Position numbers and translations under genes: made by a program
Virus record (IMG/VR): IMGVR_UViG_2778261457_000008
Span: 1-15,507 of that record
Direction: 5' to 3' (one strand)
Source: a virus
Taxonomy: Duplodnaviria > Heunggongvirae > Uroviricota > Caudoviricetes
Length of the DNA stretch: 15,507 bases
Shown here: positions 1-10,669 of the stretch, piece after piece
How the letters are laid out: each line of letters opens with the position of its first letter
How positions within the stretch are numbered: the stretch's first letter is position 1
The notes under the pieces: generated by a model
Databases searched by the model: none
Told to the model about the DNA's origin: nothing
The model's input: only the letters and a program-made list of their open reading frames with translations

Positions 1-1248
1 ATGGCACTGAATATTCCATTCAGAAATGCGTACTATCGTTTTGCATCCAGTTACTCATTTCTCTTTTTTATTTCCTGGTCGCTGTGGTGGTCGTTATACG
101 CTATTTGGCTGAAAGGACATCTAGGGTTGACAGGGACGGAATTAGGTACACTTTATTCGGTCAACCAGTTTACCAGCATTCTATTTATGATGTTCTACGG
201 CATCGTTCAGGATAAACTCGGTCTGAAGAAACCGCTCATCTGGTGTATGAGTTTCATCCTGGTCTTGACCGGACCGTTTATGATTTACGTTTATGAACCG
301 TTACTGCAAAGCAATTTTTCTGTAGGTCTAATTCTGGGGGCGCTATTTTTTGGCTTGGGGTATCTGGCGGGATGCGGTTTGCTTGATAGCTTCACCGAAA
401 AAATGGCGCGAAATTTTCATTTCGAATATGGAACAGCGCGCGCCTGGGGATCTTTTGGCTATGCTATTGGCGCGTTCTTTGCCGGCATATTTTTTAGTAT
501 CAGTCCCCATATCAACTTCTGGTTGGTCTCGCTATTTGGCGCTGTATTTATGATGATCAACATGCGTTTTAAAGATAAGGATCACCAGTGCGTAGCGGCA
601 GATGCGGGAGGGGTAAAAAAAGAGGATTTTATCGCAGTTTTCAAGGATCGAAACTTCTGGGTTTTCGTCATATTTATTGTGGGGACGTGGTCTTTCTATA
701 ACATTTTTGATCAACAACTTTTTCCTGTCTTTTATGCAGGTTTATTCGAATCACACGATGTAGGAACGCGCCTGTATGGTTATCTCAACTCATTCCAGGT
801 GGTACTCGAAGCGCTGTGCATGGCGATTATTCCTTTCTTTGTGAATCGGGTAGGGCCAAAAAATGCATTACTTATCGGAGTTGTGATTATGGCGTTGCGT
901 ATCCTTTCCTGCGCGCTGTTCGTTAACCCCTGGATTATTTCATTAGTGAAGTTGTTACATGCCATTGAGGTTCCACTTTGTGTCATATCCGTCTTCAAAT
1001 ACAGCGTGGCAAACTTTGATAAGCGCCTGTCGTCGACGATCTTTCTGATTGGTTTTCAAATTGCCAGTTCGCTTGGGATTGTGCTGCTTTCAACGCCGAC
1101 TGGGATACTCTTTGACCACGCAGGCTACCAGACAGTTTTCTTCGCAATTTCGGGTATTGTCTGCCTGATGTTGCTATTTGGCATTTTCTTCTTGAGTAAA
1201 AAACGCGAGCAAATAGTTATGGAAACGCCTGTACCTTCAGCAATATAG
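1..1248 (+). CDS. cscB: Sucrose:H+ symporter, LacY-family oligosaccharide/H+ symporter (MFS); host flank
   Basis: 415-aa ORF with about 12 hydrophobic segments; N-terminus MALNIPFRNAYYRF and the GIVQDKLGLKK loop match my recollection of CscB/LacY; csc loci are known to lie beside argW. Confidence 0.8.
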   Translation: MALNIPFRNAYYRFASSYSFLFFISWSLWWSLYAIWLKGHLGLTGTELGTLYSVNQFTSILFMMFYGIVQDKLGLKKPLIWCMSFILVLTGPFMIYVYEPLLQSNFSVGLILGALFFGLGYLAGCGLLDSFTEKMARNFHFEYGTARAWGSFGYAIGAFFAGIFFSISPHINFWLVSLFGAVFMMINMRFKDKDHQCVAADAGGVKKEDFIAVFKDRNFWVFVIFIVGTWSFYNIFDQQLFPVFYAGLFESHDVGTRLYGYLNSFQVVLEALCMAIIPFFVNRVGPKNALLIGVVIMALRILSCALFVNPWIISLVKLLHAIEVPLCVISVFKYSVANFDKRLSSTIFLIGFQIASSLGIVLLSTPTGILFDHAGYQTVFFAISGIVCLMLLFGIFFLSKKREQIVMETPVPSAI

Positions 1249-1257
1249 ACGTAAACT

Positions 1258-1301
1258 TTTTCCGGTTGTTGTCGATAGCTCTATATCCCTCAACCGGAAA
1301 A
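1258..1301. repeat. Perfect 11-bp inverted repeat TTTTCCGGTTG / CAACCGGAAAA with 22-bp spacer, 10 bp after the cscB stop
   Basis: Read directly from sequence; no T-run follows, so not a canonical intrinsic terminator. Confidence 0.5.
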
Positions 1302-1689
1302 TAATAATAGTAAAATGCTTAGCCCTGCTAATAATCGCCTAATCCAAACGCCTCATTCATGTTCTGGTACAGTCGCTCAAATGTACTTCAGATGCGCGGT
1401 TCGCTGATTTCCAGGACATTGTCGTCATTCAGTGACCTGTCCCGTGTATCACGGTCCTGCGAATTCATCAAGGAATGCATTGCGGAGTGAAGTATCGAGT
1501 CACGCCATATTTCGCTATCAGGATTCTGTGTGATGGTTACATCGCCCGGCCCAGGGCTGTTTAGTCATCAGCGCTTTCTGACAGTGCTGAGATTTCAACC
1601 TGTTGCAGTAAAAATGAGTAGATATAAGGCAAGTGTGCTGCCAAACCCATCTTTTACGGGGTGAAGGTAGATTTCGTTTGAAGGGTATC

Positions 1690-1704
1690 TGGTGTCCCCT
1701 GCAG
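1690..1704 (-). mobile_element. Attachment-site core: 15 nt equal to a tRNA 3' end (T-stem 3' half, acceptor stem, discriminator, CCA); recalled as argW
   Basis: Minus strand reads CTGCAGGGGACACCA; it lies between the host cscB flank and the first phage gene; no complete tRNA is present in the window. Confidence 0.6.
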
Positions 1705-1777
1705 ACATCTACTTGACGCGGCAGGGGATTGATTAGAATGGTGTTTTTTAGGTGTGAGAAATATTTTACCCGCTATT

Positions 1778-1978
1778 TTACCCATTGGCGCGGCTTAAGA
1801 GCTTATTTTTGAATTCACAATGGTCACGATATAACCATCTTGCTCGCCCGTGGATAACTTTGGCTTTAGGCAGGTCGCCGGACTTAATCCGGTCATAGAT
1901 GAAGGTTTTACCGAAGCCAGTATCGGCCATGATGAATTTCAAATCAACCAGTGAATCAGGCTGTAGTTCGTGTTGCAT
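1778..1978 (-). CDS. torI: Excisionase / recombination directionality factor, AlpA-Xis winged-helix family (TorI-like)
   Basis: 66-aa product MQHELQPDSLVDLKFIMADTGFGKTFIYDRIKSGDLPKAKVIHGRARW…; GGAG 9 nt upstream of this ATG; the track's upstream ATG at 1993 has no SD; position next to att without int matches KplE1-type layout. Confidence 0.7.
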   Translation of the reverse strand: MQHELQPDSLVDLKFIMADTGFGKTFIYDRIKSGDLPKAKVIHGRARWLYRDHCEFKNKLLSRANG

Positions 1979-1995
1979 GAGTGCTATCTCCAAAT

Positions 1996-2013
1996 AGGGA
2001 ATCGAACCTGCAA
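1996..2013 (-). repeat. tRNA T-arm fragment (minus strand TTGCAGGTTCGATTCC) that continues the same tRNA as the 1690-1704 core
   Basis: 16-nt match to variable loop + T-stem 5' half + T-loop; the T-stem 3' half is missing here and is found at 1700-1704. Confidence 0.5.
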
Positions 2014-2020
2014 ATCAGGC

Positions 2021-2043
2021 AATAAAAAACCGCCATCAGGCGG
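2021..2043 (-). terminator. Intrinsic terminator on minus strand (stem CCGCC/GGCGG, loop TGAT, then TTTTTTATT)
   Basis: Hairpin plus U-run read from sequence; overlaps the stop of the 55-aa gene and lies just upstream of torI. Confidence 0.5.
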
Positions 2044-2203
2044 TTTGGTGTTCTTTCAGTTCTTCAATTCGAATATTGGTTACGTCTGCATGTGCTATCT
2101 GCGCCCATATCATCCAGTGGTCATAGCAGTCATTGATGTTCTCTGCTTCGATAACTCTGTTGAATGGTTCTCCATTCCATTCACCTGTGACTCGGAAGTG
2201 CAT
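2036..2203 (-). CDS. Small hypothetical prophage protein (55 aa), missed by the ORF track (<60 aa)
   Basis: ATG at 2203 preceded by GGAG with 7-nt spacing; open frame MHFRVTGEWNGEPFNRVIEAENINDCYDHWMIWAQIAHADVTNIRIEELKEHQTA; terminator follows. Confidence 0.5.
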   Translation of the reverse strand: MHFRVTGEWNGEPFNRVIEAENINDCYDHWMIWAQIAHADVTNIRIEELKEHQTA

Positions 2204-2361
2204 TTATCATCTCCATAAAACAAAACCCGCCGTAGCGAGTTCAGATAAAAGAAATCCCCGCGAGTGCGAGGATTGTTATTGTCTTTTCTTCGTGCATTTG
2301 TCGCACTTTCGGCACCATCCAGATAGGCACATCCGTCCGCAATTAACACATATAGGCCACA

Positions 2362-2643
2362 TCATTTTTCCTCTTTTGGTTTATGAATCTGAATGGTTAT
2401 GCCGCTTTGAGTGGTGACTACAATGACAGAACCAGGCTGAAGACTGTTAAGATTGAATGCTTCGTAAAACGAATCAAAGGCCAGCGCTTTTTTATTCTTT
2501 CGGTTCCACCAACGCCATCCCTTGCTACAGGCTACACTGACAATCCACTGTCCACTCCTGTAAGCCATATAAAACCAGATGAGCAAAACCTGAAGGAAGG
2601 CTATCCAGTCAATAATCGTATATTTCGCGAAGGAGTCCATCAT
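2362..2643 (-). CDS. Hypothetical small membrane protein (93 aa)
   Basis: ATG at 2643 with AGGAGG 4 nt upstream and ATGA overlap with the upstream gene's stop; one clear hydrophobic helix (IIDWIAFLQVLLIWFYMAY); the track's longer start at 2697 would overlap the upstream gene by 58 nt. Confidence 0.5.
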   Translation of the reverse strand: MMDSFAKYTIIDWIAFLQVLLIWFYMAYRSGQWIVSVACSKGWRWWNRKNKKALAFDSFYEAFNLNSLQPGSVIVVTTQSGITIQIHKPKEEK

Positions 2644-3362
2644 TTCGCCTCCTGCGGCGGTTCTGGTAGCGGCATCCAGTGGGTTACTCCATGCCATATA
2701 CCAGTTAAGGTTTCAAACCTTGGCTCTCTGCCTTTCTGTGTCTTGGCATATTCATTCCTTGTATATACGCATTGTCTAACTGCATATCCATTCCATCCAA
2801 TAACTGTTTGTCTAATTTCAGGCATTCGCTCACTACAGCTTATCCAACCATCCGGAGTTACCGGAGAGTTGCCATCCAGCGCGTTCAACTTGTAAGCCTG
2901 GCTTACAGGTTCGGCACTATGAAGCATGGCAGCGCGGCAGGCGTTCCAGCCTTGAACCTTAGCTATTGCCACAACTGCATCGGTAAAGAACATTCTCGCG
3001 GTATCTGGCTCCGGCATTTCATCCGGCACAGCTTGCTGCGGTAACTGTGGTACAGTCAGTGACTCCAATTCAGCGATACGCTTCTCTGCGGCTTCCAGTT
3101 CATCAAGCAGCGCCAAGACGGTAGCCGGATTGGCTGCAGCGATGAATTCAGCATTGGCCTGCTGTTCCATTTGGAAATCTTCATCGAAACCGCTTTCAGG
3201 ATGCGCTCCTTCAATTATGCAAATAGGAAGATATCCAACAACTTCACGATGAATTAGCGCATCACCAGCATCAAGTTTCTCCTCTCCATATTCGAGCGAC
3301 CACACACCACACGTTGCTTTCTCTGCCTTTTCACGCAGTGCCTGATAATCAATCTTGCTCAC
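2640..3362 (-). CDS. Ead/Ea22-like early accessory protein with DUF551-like C-terminus
   Basis: 240 aa; motifs NPATVLALLDELEAAEKR and C-terminal HGVTHWMPLPEPP recalled from Ead/Ea22 and DUF551 families; GTG start with AGGAGG 6 nt upstream, GTGA overlap with upstream gene. Confidence 0.6.
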   Translation of the reverse strand: MSKIDYQALREKAEKATCGVWSLEYGEEKLDAGDALIHREVVGYLPICIIEGAHPESGFDEDFQMEQQANAEFIAAANPATVLALLDELEAAEKRIAELESLTVPQLPQQAVPDEMPEPDTARMFFTDAVVAIAKVQGWNACRAAMLHSAEPVSQAYKLNALDGNSPVTPDGWISCSERMPEIRQTVIGWNGYAVRQCVYTRNEYAKTQKGREPRFETLTGIWHGVTHWMPLPEPPQEAK

Positions 3363-3898
3363 TGGTTGCCTCCTTTGCGAAGCTGGGCGGCGAATTTCTG
3401 TGCCTCTTTCTGGATGAATAGCTTTTCGCTGAAGTTATGGTACTGACCGAACATCTCCACGCCCTGCGCCCGAACTTCAGCCATGAAGGCGTCGGTGGCT
3501 GGGTGCTCTGTCTGGCTATGCATTGCCCATTCAGATAAGTACTCGAAGCAACGGCGAAACTCCTGCCAATCACTGCACATGTTTAGATTTCCGCCTTCAC
3601 ACTCGAACTGGTAATTCTCTAAACGGTCTGCAAACGCTATGCCATTCTCGATGGCACCAAGTGGAATATCAGACTTCATCCCCGCATTCTCTGCCGTAAG
3701 CGCCGCGCACTTGGCCTCAAGGTTATCAATCGTGATTCCAGCAGAACGACACTCCCGCAACGCCGTTTCCAGTTTTGATTCAAGTTCACCGAACTTACGG
3801 ACAAGATATTCAGCGTTTGTTTCGTTAACCTTTAAATCTCGTGGGATGCATTTACCTTTCAGAAAACCATCCATCTCAATTAGTGACATTTGTTTCAT
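3359..3898 (-). CDS. Hypothetical early-left protein (about 179 aa)
   Basis: Long open frame; I place the start at ATG 3898 (GGAG upstream) rather than the track's GTG at 3916, which has no SD; no recognisable domain. Confidence 0.5.
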
Positions 3899-4055
3899 TT
3901 CTTCCCACTCCGCCACATCGCATTCAGATATTTGTTGTCATTAACAGAACCGAAACTCTTTCTCTTAAGCAATTCCTCTCTCGATGGCATTGGCTTTACG
4001 CGTTGGCGAATAATCATTTCTGCCGGAAGAATGCCGGGGTTGTATGCAAGTTCTC

Positions 4056-4346
4056 TCATGATTTACTCTCCACGACCTGGTCAATAGCCATGCTAAGTGA
4101 CATACCTAAAGTTTCGATATGCTGCTGAATATCCTGTAGCGTCTGCGCCTGAGATAACAGGATTTCACGGTTACATAACTCTTTAACCAGATGCTCAAAC
4201 TTGCTGTAATAACCGATACGGCTTAGTGTTTCTTTCCCTGCATTCTCACCTTCTTTGATAATTCCTCTTTCACTAAGAATCAGGTCGTGTTTGGTTCCGG
4301 TAATAACGTATTTGCCGAGGTCGATGTTTAGCTTCATTGTTTTCAT
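4056..4346 (-). CDS. Hypothetical protein (96 aa)
   Basis: ATG at 4346 with GAGGA 7 nt upstream, overlapping the upstream gene's stop; the track's longer N-terminal extension lacks an SD. Confidence 0.45.
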
Positions 4347-4356
4347 TGTTAATTCC

Positions 4357-4650
4357 TCAGTCATTACTGATAGCGCCATAACGTGAGCGGTAATTACGCA
4401 GGCGCGGGTCAATTTCAGGGAAGTGGGTATATGTGGCTTTGCGGAATGGTCGGATTGATGTCTGGTAAATTCGCTCGCGTTCTTCTTTCTCTGCAAGCCA
4501 TATACAGTGGCGAAATTCCTTTTCCTCTTTCGTTTCCTGCGGTAGCGACATTATCAGGTCGTAGTTTTTTCTGAATTTATCCAGCACCTCCGATACGGAA
4601 TTGCCGGAACAGCGGCGCGCGTCGTCCGCACCATACAGAGGCGCTGGCAT
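4357..4650 (-). CDS. Hypothetical protein (97 aa)
   Basis: ATG at 4650 with AGGAG 6 nt upstream; tight packing with neighbours. Confidence 0.55.
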   Translation of the reverse strand: MPAPLYGADDARRCSGNSVSEVLDKFRKNYDLIMSLPQETKEEKEFRHCIWLAEKEERERIYQTSIRPFRKATYTHFPEIDPRLRNYRSRYGAISND

Positions 4651-4663
4651 GATTTTCTCCTGA

Positions 4664-5143
4664 TTAAATTGCGTGAATAGCGTGACGAGGGAAGGGGAGA
4701 GTTACTGGTTCCTCGTCTGGGTAGATAGGTTTGTTATGTTTGTGCCACTCGACATGACATGACTTGCAGAGCCACATCACATCGGTTGGTTTGCTGTAGT
4801 CGCAGTGGTGCGCCTGTGGTTTACATTCTGATCCGCAGCACTCACATTGTGGTGGTCGGATTAGCTTACCGTCGCGCAAAAAATTACCCACAATGATGTG
4901 GGCTTTTCTTTTCCATGGGTTGCTCTGAATGAACCGCTTTTTGGCTGCGTTACACCGTTCTCTTCCGCGTTCCGATGATTGATATTCTCTCCTTGCTGAT
5001 ACTCGATGTGGCAATCCAGCGCGTTCTTTGTCGTATTCAGCCAGGCAAGCCCGGCAAGCGGCAGTTAATCCATCTCTGGATGCTCTTCTGATTTGAAAGT
5101 CCCTTTCTTCCTTCTGTTGATGGCATCTTGAGCAGATTTTCAT
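4664..5143 (-). CDS. HNH endonuclease with N-terminal Cys-rich region
   Basis: 159 aa; C-terminal motif …CECCGSECKPQAHHCDYSKPTDVMWLCKSCHVEWH typical of the HNH fold; AGGAG 6 nt upstream of the ATG. Confidence 0.65.
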   Translation of the reverse strand: MKICSRCHQQKEERDFQIRRASRDGLTAACRACLAEYDKERAGLPHRVSARREYQSSERGRERCNAAKKRFIQSNPWKRKAHIIVGNFLRDGKLIRPPQCECCGSECKPQAHHCDYSKPTDVMWLCKSCHVEWHKHNKPIYPDEEPVTLPFPRHAIHAI

Positions 5144-5152
5144 ATTCAGCTC

Positions 5153-5626
5153 CTAGAACGGAATATCCGAATCGTCGAAGTTCATAGGTGGTTCGCTGTG
5201 ATTTCCCTGCTGCTGAGGTTGCTGTCTTTGTTGCTGACCATTATTTCGCTGAGGTGAAGACTGTTCATTGCCTCCTTGCTTGCCACCAAGCATTTGCATG
5301 GTTCCACCAACGCCCACGATGACTTCGGTAGTGAACCTATCCTGTCCGCTTTGATCCTGCCATTTTCTTGTCCGTAATTTGCCTTCAAGATAAACCTCAG
5401 AGCCTTTTCGCAGATATTCGCTGGCAATTTCTGCCAGTTTCCCGCTCATTACCACACGGTGCCACTCCGTCTGCTCCTTTTGCTCTCCAGTTTGCTTATC
5501 ACGCCATTGTTCTGACGTAGCAACTGTAAGGTTTGCAAATGCCGTTCCTGATGGTGAATATCTGATTTCTGGATCATGCCCAAGGCGACCAATAATGATC
5601 ACCTTATTTACGCCTCTACTTCCCAT
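5153..5626 (-). CDS. ssb: Single-stranded DNA-binding protein
   Basis: 157 aa; OB-fold N-terminus, Gly/Gln-rich linker and acidic tail ending DDSDIPF. Confidence 0.85.
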
Positions 5627-6334
5627 TTATGCCGCCTGTTTTAGTTCGTTAACTCTGATGTTCATTACCTGAACGCATTTAGCCTGCGCCTCCTCGTTGC
5701 CAGCCATTAATTGCCAGTCACGCTGATAACGCTCGATGAGTTTTTTCTTGTCAGTTTCTGTTGACGCATAATCGCTGAAGTCTTTCAGGATTTGTTCGCA
5801 GTCAACCGATGGAGATTTCTGGTTGGTATTTTCTGGTGATGGTTTGTTATCTGATGCTGGGATTGCCCATCCCGGCAGCGATGGAGGGAGCCAGTAAAAT
5901 CCTGTTCCATCCTTCAGTTTTGCCCTGTGCCACCCCTGCTTTTTATCGAGAGATGTTTGTGCGAAACCTTCCTCAAGGTTATACAGATACCGACCGATTC
6001 CCCACTGAACGGCAGCACGCTTCATTGCACCGGAACGACCACCTTTTACGGCTTCTACCTGCGTGTTTTCAGCGGCATCCCATTTGGTTACCCATTCGGA
6101 ATCAATCTTGATTGATATGCCGCATTCAACTCCGCCGTTGTTGGGAATATCGCGGTATTCATTGCGCCATCCTGCTTTGCCGCAAACATCGTCCAGGCGT
6201 TTCATGATTGCCCGGTTCGTGACATAAGCCAGCACCATAGCCCACACCTTGCCATCGCGTGTTTTACCGCTTTGCTGTATTCGCCATTCGATATCTTCAG
6301 GGCTGAATGGCTCATCGAATTTATTCAAATCCAT
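5627..6334 (-). CDS. Rad52/Sak-like single-strand annealing protein (recombinase)
   Basis: 235 aa; pattern …GGRSGAMKRAAVQWGIGRYLY… resembles Rad52-fold annealing proteins; sits in the bet/erf slot beside ssb; GAGGTG 4 nt upstream of ATG. Confidence 0.55.
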   Translation of the reverse strand: MDLNKFDEPFSPEDIEWRIQQSGKTRDGKVWAMVLAYVTNRAIMKRLDDVCGKAGWRNEYRDIPNNGGVECGISIKIDSEWVTKWDAAENTQVEAVKGGRSGAMKRAAVQWGIGRYLYNLEEGFAQTSLDKKQGWHRAKLKDGTGFYWLPPSLPGWAIPASDNKPSPENTNQKSPSVDCEQILKDFSDYASTETDKKKLIERYQRDWQLMAGNEEAQAKCVQVMNIRVNELKQAA

Positions 6335-6804: not shown

Positions 6805-7773
6805 TTAGTAGGTTATTTTTGTTGCGAATACTTCGCCTTTTACGATGGCTGTTATGATATTTTTAGCAACATCTTCTGATGCGCCAACCTTGATAAGGTC
6901 AGCAAGTATTTTGTTATTTACTTCTTTTCGGTGAGCTTTATCCTTTGCTCTACACTCTTCTTCTTCCTTGATTCTTTTTTCTTCTGCTATTCTGGCTTGC
7001 TCTTTTGCTTCAGCCTCGCGCCGGATTCGTTCAGCCTCCTCCTGTGCTTTTCGGCGTTCTGCTTCAATTGCCGCATGCTTTTCTCTTTCAGCTCGTTCTG
7101 CTGCCTCTTTTGCTTCGCGCTGTGCTCGTTGCTCGGCTTCAATGCGTTCACGCTCTGCACGTTCCGCTGCGGCCTTAGCTTCTGCTTCTCGCCTTGCTGC
7201 TGCTTCAATTTCGGCTTTTGCCTTTGCTTCGGCTTCAGCTCTGGCTTTCTCTTCAGCTTCTCTTTTTAAGCGTTCTTCATGCTCTCGCTTTTCCTGCTCC
7301 GCTTTGAGTCTTGCCTCTTCTCTTTGGCGGTCAAATTCGCGATCCATCAAAATCGCTATTTCATGGTCAGACTCAATTTGCTTTGCGAGAGCTTCAGCTG
7401 CTGCCCTAGCTTCTTCTTCGGCTTTAATCCGCGCCTGTTCTTCCTCATAATCAGTAAGAGGCTGGCGTGCCTTGGCTTTCAGCTCATCAAGGCGATCACG
7501 CACTGTCTTGCGGTTGGCATCAATTAGCTTTGGAATTTCCTTCAGTTCAGCAACAAGGTCTTTGCCAAGACCATCGAGATATGTTTTCGTCTGCGCAACT
7601 TTATACGCCAGAGAAGCGATCTCCTTTCTGCCCTTTGCCGTTGTGATATCAGGCACAAAGGACATAACTTCACGTTCAACCTTTTGAAGGATTTCTTCAA
7701 TCTGGCCGGCAGACTGAAATACAGTCATTGCATTTGCTTTTTCAATAACAACTAAATCTGTTACTTCACTCAT
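6805..7773 (-). CDS. Hypothetical phage protein with long Glu/Ala/Arg/Lys-rich coiled-coil (322 aa)
   Basis: ATG at 7773 with GGAGG 4 nt upstream; the track's start at 7827 lies inside the upstream terminator hairpin; about 150 residues of EAKAEAE/RREAE repeats. Confidence 0.6.
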   Translation of the reverse strand: MSEVTDLVVIEKANAMTVFQSAGQIEEILQKVEREVMSFVPDITTAKGRKEIASLAYKVAQTKTYLDGLGKDLVAELKEIPKLIDANRKTVRDRLDELKAKARQPLTDYEEEQARIKAEEEARAAAEALAKQIESDHEIAILMDREFDRQREEARLKAEQEKREHEERLKREAEEKARAEAEAKAKAEIEAAARREAEAKAAAERAERERIEAEQRAQREAKEAAERAEREKHAAIEAERRKAQEEAERIRREAEAKEQARIAEEKRIKEEEECRAKDKAHRKEVNNKILADLIKVGASEDVAKNIITAIVKGEVFATKITY

Positions 7774-7785
7774 ATATCCTCCGTC

Positions 7786-7812
7786 AAAAAAATTGCCCTC
7801 ACACTGGAGGGC
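7786..7812 (-). terminator. tL1-like intrinsic terminator on minus strand (stem GCCCTC/GAGGGC, loop CAGTGT, then AATTTTTTT)
   Basis: Read from sequence; lies just upstream of the coiled-coil gene's SD. Confidence 0.5.
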
Positions 7813-7962
7813 AAAGAAGATTTCCAATAATCAGAACAAGTCGGCTCCTGTTTAGTTACGAGCGACATTGCTCAGTGTATTCACTCGTTGGAATGAATAT
7901 ACAGTGCAGTGTTTATTAGTATGCCTGTCTTTTAACCACATCAGGCTCGGTGGTTCTCGTGT

Positions 7963-8624: not shown

Positions 8625-8897
8625 TCATCTCGCCGTCAGTTGTTTTGATTTCCGGTAGCCTGCCGCGTAAATGGCTACGTTTGGCAGGCAAATACTTCCA
8701 CTGCATTCATCTGCCTTCTTGCAGCGAAGGCTTCCGAGTGATGCTGCTTTGTCTGCTCTGACGCAACCAGAGAGCTTTAGCGCAATTTTTCGCGCCAGTC
8801 GCTGTTCTTGCATTGCCTGCTCACGTTGAGCCTGTCTGCGTGCTCTGCGGCGATTTCTGGCGTTATCGTCAGCCAGATATGTAATGACTACTGCCAT
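8625..8897 (-). CDS. N: Antitermination protein N (P22 gp24-like)
   Basis: 90 aa; N-terminal arginine-rich motif NARNRRRARRQAQRE; C-terminus …YAAGYRKSKQLTAR recalled from P22 gene 24; GGAGG 5 nt upstream; nutL and pL lie upstream. Confidence 0.7.
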   Translation of the reverse strand: MAVVITYLADDNARNRRRARRQAQREQAMQEQRLARKIALKLSGCVRADKAASLGSLRCKKADECSGSICLPNVAIYAAGYRKSKQLTAR

Positions 8898-9265: not shown

Positions 9266-9634
9266 TTAGTCAGCGAAGGTTAAGACGAGAATTACCTTAA
9301 TGATGTCTGCTACAACAGACACGGCCATAGATAAACCAAAGACGATCCAAGCCACAGTGATGTCTTCACTACCATCGTATAGAGTTCCGTAATCACTGGT
9401 GTAAGGCGTAAATGTCGCGCCTTGATACAATAGGTATAAGCTTGATCCATAGAGGATAAATGCAGATATCCCTTGTATTGCTATGATCACAAGAATCATG
9501 AAACGAGCTGATCTATGCGCCCAAGCCTGGCTTATTTTTTCTGATAGAGATTTCGCAATAAAAGCATGCGCTAAGCCGTAAATTGTCGAGATTGCCAACA
9601 TCCCAAAAAAGCTTGCTATAGCGGTTCCAACCAT
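9266..9634 (-). CDS. Small integral membrane protein (about 122 aa, about 4 TM) directly downstream of cI, in the rex slot
   Basis: ATG at 9634 with AAGGGG 5 nt upstream, 17 nt after the cI stop; the track's start at 9655 is a TTG overlapping the cI stop; very hydrophobic; no recognisable family. Confidence 0.6.
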   Translation of the reverse strand: MVGTAIASFFGMLAISTIYGLAHAFIAKSLSEKISQAWAHRSARFMILVIIAIQGISAFILYGSSLYLLYQGATFTPYTSDYGTLYDGSEDITVAWIVFGLSMAVSVVADIIKVILVLTFAD

Positions 9635-9651
9635 AAGCGCCCCTTGCGTGA

Positions 9652-10368
9652 TCAAACCAGCCTTAGTTTTGTCTCAATTGCAACGCCTATAATCTTGCAG
9701 TTTCCATTGATTGGCACGAGAGGCCATGCAGGATTAAGTCCCTTGAGGTATTTATTTCCGCCGTCGATTATCAGCTTCTTGAATGTTGCTTCGTTAGAGT
9801 CAGAAAGTTTTGCTATGACCAAGCTGCCGTTGATCGCCTCCCTTCCGGTATCGAAAAGAACGAATGTTCCCTCTGGAATGCTTAACCCAACCGGTGCCGT
9901 CATTGAATCACCTTCCACTTTAAGCCAAAACGCATTACCTTGAATATGCGCGTCAGACTCAAGCCAAACATCTATGTCTTTAATGGTGTATGGTTCGCAT
10001 GCTTCACACCACGAGCCAGCCTGGATACTGCTTAACACCGGATACCTCTTTCCTGCTCTGTATTCCCCTGCATACCTTACGTTGGCATCGCTCTTAAGGC
10101 TTTCTGCCTGTTCTGCAACCTTGGCAGCAATTGACTGGCTAAAATCAGCAATTGAGACTTGCAACAATCGTGCAAAACCAGATGCAACCTCAACGTTTAG
10201 CGCGTTTCTGCCATTAAGATAATGCCCTACCGCTCCTTGGGTGATACCAAGTTCATCAGCGATTGAGTATTGGGTTATTCCCAATTCTTTCTTTTTTGAC
10301 TCATACAAAGCCTTAAGACGCTTAGCGTCTTCGAGCTGTTCTGTCGTCAGTGATTTTTTATTTTCCAT
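9652..10368 (-). CDS. cI: CI-type prophage repressor (HTH + S24 LexA-like autocleavage domain)
   Basis: 238 aa; N-terminus LTTEQLEDAKRLKALYESKKKELGITQ and C-terminal FWLKVEGDSMTAP…FKKL closely parallel lambda CI; divergent from cro across operators. Confidence 0.9.
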   Translation of the reverse strand: MENKKSLTTEQLEDAKRLKALYESKKKELGITQYSIADELGITQGAVGHYLNGRNALNVEVASGFARLLQVSIADFSQSIAAKVAEQAESLKSDANVRYAGEYRAGKRYPVLSSIQAGSWCEACEPYTIKDIDVWLESDAHIQGNAFWLKVEGDSMTAPVGLSIPEGTFVLFDTGREAINGSLVIAKLSDSNEATFKKLIIDGGNKYLKGLNPAWPLVPINGNCKIIGVAIETKLRLV

Positions 10369-10445: not shown

Positions 10446-10474
10446 TTGTTCATGGTTAATAACGGAGAGTGCAT

Positions 10475-10669
10475 ATGATTCGAATGACACTTGCCGATTA
10501 CGCCAAAATCCATGGACAGGCTAAAGCAGCCAGTGACTTTGGTGTAATCCAGTGCGCTATCAGCAAGGCCATTCTGGCAGGCCGTAACATTATGGTTACG
10601 GTAAAGCCTGATGGCAGTGTGATTGGAGAGGAAGTTCGTCCTTTCCCAAGCAACAAGAAAAACAAATAG
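10475..10669 (+). CDS. cro: Cro repressor
   Basis: 64 aa from the ATG at 10475 (GGAGAG 5 nt upstream); …[40 protein letters not shown] parallels lambda Cro; the track's GTG start at 10469 is too close to the SD. Confidence 0.85.

Follow-up and report, generated by a model that had tools for sequence, protein, structure and literature searches.

The block of small genes at 2036-4650, on the minus strand of the window (the 15,507-nt stretch of viral DNA analysed here), is very probably an ordinary, highly mosaic and non-essential xis-proximal end of a pL operon, held together by translational coupling and built by recombination, in a P22-like (Lederbergvirus) E. coli prophage of the Sf6/HK620 type that lies beside cscB. 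Upstream of the block, on the expected strands, are genes for a cI-like repressor, Cro, N, SieB, Kil, a Rad52-like annealase and SSB, and the gene directly upstream encodes an HNH protein identical (100%) to Sf6 gp26. On the other side the block is followed by a xis gene of the TorI/HkaC type (1778-1993). Homology to Sf6 and HK620 starts at about 1690, in alignment with their annotated attP core, and cscB, the host sucrose permease gene, adjoins the prophage. The general reading of the first-pass annotation, which had seen a lambdoid early-left arm with small accessory genes coupled in translation, holds, and the prophage can be further specified as P22-like.

Gene content and layout of the block

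The minus strand of the block carries seven well-supported genes and one doubtful ORF of 29 aa. Six genes had been listed in the first-pass annotation, with products of 55, 93, 240, 179, 96 and 97 aa. All six are present at these lengths; the 55-aa gene stops at 2036 and the 97-aa gene starts at 4650, which gives the outer coordinates. The list overlooked a 54-aa gene (3895-4059), which accounts for the 157 nt separating the 96-aa and 179-aa genes. All ORFs except the 29-aa one match a Pfam or PHROG family, with E-values from 1.8e-5 to 5.7e-64, and a Shine-Dalgarno-like motif precedes every ORF start of the block; the gene calls are therefore beyond chance. Within the block, plus-strand and alternative-frame ORFs (up to 170 aa long) had no Pfam support. 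The sole PHROG match among them is a short partial one (phrog_23547, E 3e-09, residues 10-38) to the plus-strand ORF 2772-3044, which is antisense to the DUF551-coding stretch. An NCBIfam search of the block products gave zero matches, and neither an RNA family (Rfam scan) nor a tRNA was found in the window.

The junctions comprise five consecutive 4-nt overlaps and one stop codon placed within a Shine-Dalgarno motif. The latter joins the 97-aa and 96-aa genes, where the TGA stop lies within TGAGGA in a 10-nt spacer. The 54-aa gene has a 4-nt ATGA overlap with both of its neighbors, the 179-aa and 240-aa genes meet in a GTGA overlap, and the 240-aa and 93-aa genes in an ATGA overlap. The tight coupling that had been proposed along the whole series is thus borne out at three of the original junctions (97 to 96, 179 to 240 and 240 to 93). 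It does not extend to the 96-aa and 179-aa genes, which are not adjacent, nor to the 93-aa and 55-aa genes, which are 158 nt apart, an interval that holds the 29-aa ORF and then two hairpins.

The Ead/Ea22-like protein had been considered the only product with a recognizable family. Searches of Pfam, PHROGs and the PDB, together with comparison to homologues, also identify Abc2, Orf55, DUF5405, DUF2737, DUF4752 and HkaH-like proteins, and the products are not all members of well-characterized structural or housekeeping families. The homology and structure searches that had been suggested matched Abc2 to a solved PDB chain. They returned no significant PDB match for the 96-aa product or, by sequence and profile, for the 240-, 179-, 93- (DUF4752), 55- and 54-aa products.

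The Ead/Ea22-like protein (240 aa, 2640..3362, minus strand, GTG start) is encoded between the recombination genes and xis of the lambdoid early-left operon. It combines an Ead_Ea22 domain (PF13935, residues 2-122, E 7e-23; 82.2 bits, cutoff 27) with a C-terminal DUF551 domain (PF04448, residues 172-237, aligned to all 68 profile positions, E 1.9e-16; 61.1 bits, cutoff 22). Judged by these domains, it has the "Ea22_V2" architecture described in PMC10834534. The Ea22_V2 protein of Stx phages has the same three parts: a short N-terminus, a coiled coil with the Ead_Ea22 signature and, at the C-terminus, DUF551 (PMC10834534). Unlike it, the protein encoded here is a hybrid of Sf6 gp21 and HK106 gp32, because DNA identity splits along the gene, with 2844-3361 following Sf6 gene 21 (96% identity) and 2242-2915 following HK106 (97.6%). 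The hybrid is the sole member of its 90% identity cluster. Ea22 of lambda and of Stx phages forms a tetramer and has a pro-lysogenic phenotype (PMC7093339, PMC10834534). From its family membership, the 240-aa protein would probably tip the lysis-lysogeny decision toward lysogeny, by analogy with proteins that differ from it in their C-terminal domains or contexts.

The next gene upstream encodes a mosaic coiled-coil protein of 179 aa (3359..3898, minus strand) that resembles HK620 HkaH (55% identity; phrog_614, E 7.1e-49) and matches P22 EaE weakly. It has more than 7500 relatives, among which the middle and C-terminal segments are swapped. Its AF2 model is all-helical and of low confidence (pLDDT 64, pTM 0.27).

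Downstream of the 240-aa gene, a DUF4752 protein of 93 aa (2362..2643, minus strand; PF15944, E 2.3e-35; 120.9 bits, cutoff 27) is 98% identical to HK106 gp31. It has a conserved N-terminal hydrophobic helix, with a Kyte-Doolittle maximum over 19 residues of 1.78 at residues 9-27, and both this segment and a WRWWNRK motif are kept in DUF4752 homologues from Citrobacter and Enterobacter. Its stop overlaps, by ATGA, the start of the 29-aa Cys-rich ORF (2276..2365, minus strand; MMWPICVNCGRMCLSGWCRKCDKCTKKRQ), which has a Shine-Dalgarno motif and appears as gp30 in the annotation of phage HK106. This ORF matched no Pfam or PHROG family. Variants in 47 related loci are mostly non-synonymous and include changes of Cys, start and stop codons, which is why we keep it only as a possible gene, and a doubtful one.

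The last gene of the block (2036..2203, minus strand) encodes a 55-aa homologue of lambda Orf55, to which it is identical at 54/55 positions (98%; lambdap35; phrog_676, E 1.5e-39). A T7 Gp2-like fold that would bind RNA polymerase has been proposed for Orf55 from modeling (PMC8614690). A 264-bp cassette containing this gene shares 96.6% identity with lambda 29098-29361, and 42 nt separate it from the xis ORF downstream. Within this cassette, two tandem terminator-like hairpins precede orf55 (2223..2274, minus strand), each followed by a U-rich tract, with folding energies of -13.1 kcal/mol (z -5.5) and -11 kcal/mol (z -3.6). A third terminator-like hairpin spans the Orf55 stop codon (2027..2046, minus strand; -13 kcal/mol, z -3.9) and is followed by UUUUUUAUU. 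As to a correspondence of the tandem hairpins with lambda tL3, the literature that we found names tL3 and gives no coordinates.

Mosaic relation to known phages

The block is assembled from segments that are 94-98% identical to Sf6, HK106, HK620 and lambda, and the switches between them fall at gene junctions. Parts of the 1700-5200 region are matched by 587 phage records, none of which covers at least 80% of it. Similarly, of 5426 complete E. coli genomes, 3575 contain parts of the block, none has the exact combination, and the largest share within any single genome is 82%. The block was probably put together through recombination at junctions with short conserved sequences, which would make each cassette common and this combination not.

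The closest overall relatives are genes 19-26 of Shigella phage Sf6 and hkaC-hkaK of coliphage HK620, which share an identical xis/TorI gene and the same position of the att core. Besides the HNH protein, Sf6 gp25 (Abc2, 95%), gp24 (DUF5405, 97%) and gp23 (DUF2737, 89%) are close counterparts, and gp21 (Ead) agrees over its N-terminal part, with 81% identity in protein and 96% in DNA. In place of Sf6 gp22, gp20 (Lar-like) and gp19, the window has the HkaH-like gene, the DUF551 tail, DUF4752, the 29-aa ORF and the lambda-type orf55 cassette.

In P22, the abc2-ea region (abc2, orf56, eaE, eaD, eaA and on to xis) occupies the same place in the pL operon, from the recombination genes to xis. Abc2 is 94% and orf56 (DUF2737) 70% identical between the two, and segments related to EaE, EaD (Ead) and EaA (DUF551) are found here. 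P22 has abc1 between erf and abc2, whereas the window has SSB and the HNH gene instead and no Abc1 homologue; conversely, P22 lacks the DUF5405, DUF4752 and Orf55 cassettes. P22 encodes Ead and the DUF551-bearing EaA as two proteins, whereas here they are fused in the 240-aa protein.

[quoted passage not shown] It shares with the block the orf55 cassette with its flanking hairpins (96.6% DNA identity) and a protein of the Ead/Ea22 family, although the C-terminal domain of lambda Ea22 is unrelated to DUF551. Homologues of orf60a, orf61, orf63 and ea8.5 are absent from the block, and lambda counters RecBCD by Gam where the prophage would do so by Abc2.

Abc2, its neighbors and the counter-defense question

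The first gene of the block is abc2 (4357..4650, minus strand), encoding anti-RecBCD protein 2 of 97 aa. The product matches PF11043 (Anti-RecBCD_p2) over residues 1-97 of 97 (E 5.7e-64, 212.8 bits against a cutoff of 25) and phrog_656 ("abc2 anti-RecBCD", E 1.2e-54). It is identical at 91/97 positions, in an ungapped alignment, to the P22 Abc2 chain of PDB 8b1t/8b1u, a complex with RecBCD (E 3.6e-58). On these matches we identify it as P22 Abc2. That protein binds the Chi-recognition domains of host RecC and recruits PpiB via Pro68 (PMC9836394). Read against this work, our alignment keeps Pro68, which engages host PpiB, and has a single change from P22 in the RecC-binding helices (residues 3-52), Ala for Pro at position 11. 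The near-identity to the solved P22 protein suggests that RecBCD would be re-programmed rather than blocked, so that the DNA ends would go to the phage annealase module, here the Rad52-like protein and SSB. Abc2 is alone among the block's products in having a mechanism based on direct experiments, which were done with the near-identical protein.

Two small genes follow abc2. The DUF5405 protein (96 aa, 4056..4346, minus strand) is 96.9% identical to Sf6 gp24. Its PF17399 match is marginal (25.6 bits against a cutoff of 21.6), and phrog_154 supports DUF5405 membership (E 1.2e-32). Its AF2 model (pLDDT 90) has four strands and two helices. A PDB fold search with the model matched nothing (best E 0.37), and the BFVD matches, which also support DUF5405 membership, were DUF5405 proteins with TM-scores of 0.74-0.85, only uncharacterized phage proteins. 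Its position beside abc2 raised the idea of an Abc1 analogue, which we rejected: hhalign against P22 Abc1 gave a probability of 0.1%, tblastn to the P22 abc1 locus was empty, and abc1 lies upstream of abc2 in P22, not downstream. The phrog_154 label "replication initiation protein" is also unsupported, because none of the PDB searches, whether by sequence, profile or fold, gave a convincing match; the label is found only on uncharacterized phage entries, and no Pfam family other than DUF5405 occurs among 104 relatives. Weak matches to a T5 PC4-like protein (TM 0.35, E about 1) and to a PcfF profile (E 0.009) were set aside. The DUF2737 protein (54 aa, 3895..4059, minus strand, pI 10.4) matches PF10930 (E 1.1e-27, 96.1 bits against a cutoff of 25) and phrog_1117 (E 5e-37) and is 70% identical to P22 orf56 and 93% to HK620 HkaI. 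With a dN/dS of 0.13-0.29 against its P22, HK620, Sf6 and HK106 homologues, the gene is under purifying selection.

The neighborhood of these two genes raises the question of whether they are independent accessory genes or part of a recombination and anti-RecBCD module acting with Abc2. DUF2737 follows abc2 in 80/80 Abc2 loci (the best 80 matches), and among 78 DUF2737 loci drawn from the best 80 matches the preceding gene is abc2 in 62, a DUF5405 gene in 11 and another gene in 5. The linkage includes loci whose Abc2 is only 60-73% identical to the one studied here, and it persists with either upstream recombinase, Erf or Rad52-like. The DUF5405 gene sits exactly between abc2 and DUF2737, with the same spacer reused. 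Elsewhere, a DUF5405 homologue directly follows a P22 Abc1 homologue in a Klebsiella prophage, and another lies downstream of YqaJ and SSB genes in Providencia. (The 97-aa Klebsiella protein upstream of DUF5405 was considered as an Abc2; it has no similarity to Abc2 and is the Abc1 homologue itself.) Such adjacency may, however, come only from the genes being physically linked where a module ends in DNA of close relatives, and each search sampled its best 80 matches. DUF2737 has a different predecessor in five loci, and neither protein resembles DNA-metabolism proteins in sequence or fold. We therefore consider a shared module unlikely. The sharper form of this idea, with DUF2737 as a partner of Abc2 in the takeover of RecBCD and DUF5405 as an optional further modulator, is based on the abc2-DUF2737 adjacency only, and we regard it as quite improbable.

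The first-pass annotation had suggested host-takeover or anti-defense roles and held that none could be assigned. The suggestion is right for Abc2, a host-takeover protein, and assignment proved possible from sequence. Its broader form, that the block is a dedicated counter-defense island with most of its small proteins acting as inhibitors of particular restriction or abortive-infection systems of the host, draws on Abc2 neutralizing the anti-phage nuclease role of RecBCD and on Lar-like restriction-alleviation genes at the same position in Sf6 (gp20) and in the SRY149 prophage. A systematic screen also placed the Abc2, DUF2737, DUF551, Ead_Ea22 and DUF5405 genes in fast-evolving "accessory regions", and it found counter-defense phenotypes for P22 abc1, from the neighboring position. 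Against this, searches of Pfam, PHROGs and NCBIfam with the seven ORFs other than abc2 found no known anti-restriction or anti-defense family (Ocr, ArdA, Ral, Lar and similar), and nothing resembling a DNA mimic or an inhibitor emerged from the fold and profile searches. The sole "Lar-like" match (phrog_5558, E 7.5e-7) belongs to the neighboring HNH gene, outside the block, and the phenotype of Ea22 proteins promotes lysogeny, not anti-defense. PADLOC defense models gave nothing above noise for the block products; the only match, of the 179-aa protein to CARF8--CARF_TM, is weak and partial (E 6e-4, 17 bits), and we took it as coiled-coil noise. On balance, a dedicated island is doubtful, and an ordinary accessory end of the pL operon is the reading that we prefer.

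Expression of the block and significance

We propose that the block is read as the tail of a single long pL transcript that would require N-mediated antitermination, the pL promoter, nut site and terminator functions all being putative. Ribosomes would move from gene to gene through the 4-nt ATGA or GTGA overlaps, or through a stop inside the next Shine-Dalgarno motif. In 1250-5200, where 6.4 +/- 3.1 sigma-70-like sites would be expected, only one was found, outside the block. Around orf55 there are three stable hairpin-plus-U-tract sites; the tandem pair would terminate transcription before this last gene, and the third after it, ahead of xis.

That some of the genes, chiefly the predicted membrane-anchored DUF4752 protein, are instead expressed in the lysogen for host protection by superinfection exclusion or defense is very improbable: such genes are frequent at prophage ends, and the conserved hydrophobic helix is followed by a basic Trp-rich stretch, yet the block holds no sigma-70-like promoter, the DUF4752 gene takes part in the translational coupling of the early operon and has no PADLOC match, and the recognizable exclusion gene of the window, SieB, is located elsewhere on the opposite strand.

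Under the preferred reading as an accessory end of the pL operon, Orf55, DUF5405, DUF2737, DUF4752 and the HkaH-like protein would be exchangeable accessory cassettes; sequence and fold searches assigned a function to none of these five among the eight ORFs. The block is a textbook case of lambdoid mosaicism, and its significance is mostly one of correct annotation: a gene as small as DUF2737 easily escapes the eye, and abc2, the only mechanistically understood gene of the block, is already well described. The purifying selection on DUF2737 and its tight linkage to abc2 make it a cheap and specific candidate for the study of RecBCD hijacking, and if it does act with Abc2, the P22-like "abc" system has unrecognized components. 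More generally, DUF5405, DUF4752, Orf55 and HkaH-like proteins are found in most E. coli genomes, and any function for them would annotate thousands of prophages.

Prophage setting of the accessory block

The window opens on host DNA, with the sucrose permease gene cscB at 1-1248 (plus strand); RefSeq entries for related genomes call this gene either cscB or an oligosaccharide MFS transporter. From ~1690 inward, the DNA is 98% identical to the P22-like phages Sf6 and HK620, and the edge of this similarity coincides exactly with the attP core annotated in both phages, which places the prophage-host junction at ~1690. Since attP lies between int and xis in Sf6 and HK620, such a prophage ends with xis on one side and int on the other, and the TorI/HkaC-type xis (1778-1993, minus strand), identical to that of both phages, therefore adjoins host DNA without an integrase on this side. 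The xis product also matches the PADLOC model "mad1" (E 9.6e-14), which probably reflects a shared AlpA/excisionase-type HTH rather than a defense function. Between the orf55 terminator and xis, GGTTCGATTCC (1998-2008, minus strand) resembles a tRNA T-arm, a likeness that may be coincidental; in Sf6 and HK620 this stretch is annotated as boundary sequence and pI promoter. An ARAGORN scan of the window was negative for tRNA genes.

Deeper in the prophage, the minus strand encodes an HNH-type endonuclease (4664-5143), SSB (5153-5626), a Rad52/22-type annealase (5627-6334), Kil and the N antiterminator (8625-8897). Beyond N, the gene for a cI-like repressor occupies 9652-10368 on the same strand, and Cro is encoded on the plus strand at 10469-10669. 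The block at 2036-4650 is therefore the distal 2.6-kb end of a Lederbergvirus-type prophage's early-left operon. The HNH gene, an insertion between SSB and abc2, encodes a Cys-rich protein of 159 aa with 100% identity to Sf6 gp26. No Pfam family matches this protein at E ≤ 0.1, and its N-terminus also matches a "Lar-like restriction alleviation" PHROG (E 7.5e-7). Two other minus-strand ORFs of this region have no Pfam match. The first (6805-7827, 340 aa) is extremely rich in E/A/K/R repeats, and the RefSeq label "cell envelope biogenesis protein TolA" on its close relatives probably stems from composition alone. The second (9266-9655, 129 aa) is strongly hydrophobic and lies between the cI-like repressor and N, a position held in other lambdoid phages by lysogen-expressed, rex-like exclusion genes.

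Gene content, junctions and expression

The first-pass annotation described six tightly coupled minus-strand genes, of which only the Ead/Ea22-like one had a recognizable family. Its general idea of the region was right, and all six ORFs are present with the lengths it gave, between outer coordinates 2036 and 4650, but the gene count was too low: a DUF2737 gene of 54 codons (3895-4059) fills the 157-nt interval that separates the 96-aa gene from the 179-aa gene. An ATGA overlap joins it to each neighbor, its ATG sharing bases with the 96-aa stop and its stop codon with the 179-aa ATG. A possible Cys-rich 29-codon ORF (2276-2365), known as gp30 in the annotation of phage HK106, shares an ATGA with the stop of the 93-aa gene. 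It has no family match. Among 47 close relatives, nearly all of its variants are non-synonymous, and they extend to changes of Cys residues and of the start and stop codons; its status as a gene is doubtful. Among the block's ORFs in other frames and on the plus strand, the sole family support is a short partial match of a plus-strand ORF (2772-3044) to phrog_23547 (E 3e-09).

Coupling is tight along most of the chain. A 13-nt spacer separates the HNH gene from abc2, and a 10-nt spacer separates abc2 from the DUF5405 gene, with the TGA stop lying within the TGAGGA Shine-Dalgarno sequence; five 4-nt overlaps follow in a row, counting the extra ORFs. The exception is the pair of 93-aa and 55-aa genes, which are 158 nt apart. 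The 29-codon ORF takes up the first 90 nt of this interval. Two stable hairpins with U-rich tracts behind them lie in the following 72 nt (-13.1 kcal/mol, z -5.5, and -11 kcal/mol, z -3.6), and a third (-13 kcal/mol) extends over the 55-aa gene's stop codon.

Scanning 1250-5200 for sigma-70-like sites revealed none within the block and one outside it, against 6.4 ± 3.1 expected. The overlap-chained genes lie on the same strand downstream of N, and with no internal sigma-70-like promoter we infer that they would be transcribed from pL, as the distal portion of an N-antiterminated message, and translated in a coupled manner. Any transcript without antitermination would be ended by the three hairpins flanking orf55, ahead of xis and the host junction.

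Abc2 and the genes that follow it

Recognizable families extend well beyond Ead/Ea22: Pfam, PHROG and identity searches matched Abc2, DUF5405, DUF2737, DUF4752, HkaH-like and Orf55 products. Abc2 (4357-4650, 97 aa) matches Pfam Anti-RecBCD_p2 over its whole length (E 5.7e-64) and is identical at 91/97 positions to the P22 Abc2 chain in PDB 8b1t/8b1u. Pro68 is kept, and residues 3-52 differ from P22 solely at position 11. This near-identity to a biochemically and structurally characterized protein argues for Abc2 function. For the products other than Abc2 and the Ea22-type protein, PDB sequence, profile and fold searches, NCBIfam and PADLOC returned no function.

The DUF2737 product (Pfam E 1.1e-27; phrog_1117, E 5e-37) is 70% identical to P22 orf56 and 93% to HK620 HkaI, and its gene is under purifying selection (dN/dS of 0.13 versus P22, and 0.27-0.29 versus HK620 and Sf6). 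It lies downstream of abc2 in all 80 of the best Abc2 loci from IMG/VR, directly and with the same 10-nt spacer in 67/80 and with a DUF5405 gene inserted in 13/80. This order is independent of the upstream recombinase (Erf or Rad52-like) and of the downstream genes. Reciprocally, among 78 evaluable DUF2737 loci the preceding gene is abc2 in 62 (Abc2 identity 60-100%), DUF5405 in 11 and a gene for a 104-aa tandem-HTH protein in 5. The last, with two Myb/SANT-like HTH repeats, is encoded just upstream of position 1501 in the IMG/VR loci L192, L213, L227, L229 and L240, and has no BLASTP similarity to Abc1. More distant DUF5405 homologues are also found directly downstream of recombination genes: in a Klebsiella prophage (locus L169, 3688-4273), a homologue of P22 Abc1 (43% identity, E 2e-29) directly precedes a DUF5405 homologue, the pair coming after GamL, RecT and Gp157 genes. 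Such adjacency could reflect a functional link of DUF2737 and DUF5405 with the abc system. It could also be mere linkage at a module boundary. The surveyed loci are biased towards close relatives, and adjacency is the one line of evidence for a functional link.

The DUF5405 protein itself (4056-4346, 96 aa; phrog_154) is 97% identical to Sf6 gp24. An exhaustive search gave 139 relatives, of which 104 were used to build a structure model (pLDDT 90) in which two helices come after four strands. The model has no counterpart among solved structures (best E 0.37), and in BFVD it matches solely uncharacterized proteins of enterobacterial, Bacillus, Lactobacillus and Cellulophaga phages. Comparison with P22 Abc1 ruled out a relationship to that protein. 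The PHROG label "replication initiation protein" found no support in PDB sequence and profile searches or among the relatives.

Mosaic cassettes

The HkaH-like protein (3359-3898, 179 aa) is 55% identical to HK620 HkaH, weakly similar to P22 EaE, and poorly predicted in structure. Its family of >7500 members shares a 43-residue N-terminus that hardly varies, a coiled coil, a 15-letter motif and an LRKGGNQ tail, with the segments between them swapped. Near-identical N-terminal parts are fused to other C-termini in the proteins P0188, P0222 and P0270, and depositors labeled some such fusions "DUF4752 domain-containing", "HNH endonuclease" or "Ead/Ea22-like". These fusions show domain-level shuffling among neighboring gene families.

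The next protein (2640-3362, 240 aa) joins an Ead_Ea22 N-terminal/coiled-coil part to a C-terminal DUF551 domain, an architecture reported from Stx phages as "Ea22_V2" (PMC10834534). Its DNA is Sf6 gene 21 (2844-3361, 96%) joined to HK106 gene 32 (2242-2915, 97.6%); the join falls in 72 bp common to both, where the DUF551 domain begins, and the hybrid is the sole member of its 90% cluster. Family membership suggests a pro-lysogenic role (PMC7093339). In the DUF4752 protein (2362-2643, 93 aa), 98% identical to HK106 gp31, residues 9-27 form a conserved hydrophobic helix and a WRWWNRK stretch comes next; all homologues found are in Enterobacteriaceae. The last gene (2036-2203, 55 aa) encodes a product identical to lambda Orf55 at 54/55 positions, within a 264-bp cassette that includes the flanking hairpins and is 96.6% identical to lambda 29098-29361. 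For Orf55, modeling has led to the proposal of a T7 Gp2-like fold and RNA-polymerase binding (PMC8614690).

Across the block, changes from identity with one of Sf6, HK106, HK620, P22 and lambda to identity with another fall at gene junctions or close to them. The 179-aa/240-aa boundary is an example: there the conserved LRKGGNQ tail, Shine-Dalgarno sequence and GTGA overlap match an annotated Sf6 "boundary sequence". Parts of 1700-5200 are matched by 587 phage records, none covering 80% of it. Parts of 2036-4650 occur in 3575/5426 complete E. coli genomes, at a median of two places per genome, with a best coverage of 82% (two genomes). Every cassette is common and the combination is new, as expected of such a region. 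Its counterparts are the P22 abc2-ea region, Sf6 genes 19-25, HK620 hkaD-hkaJ and the lambda exo-xis region, and stretches of this type, with the same families, are already classed as "accessory regions" in a published screen. The block adds a new mosaic to a type of region that is already well known.
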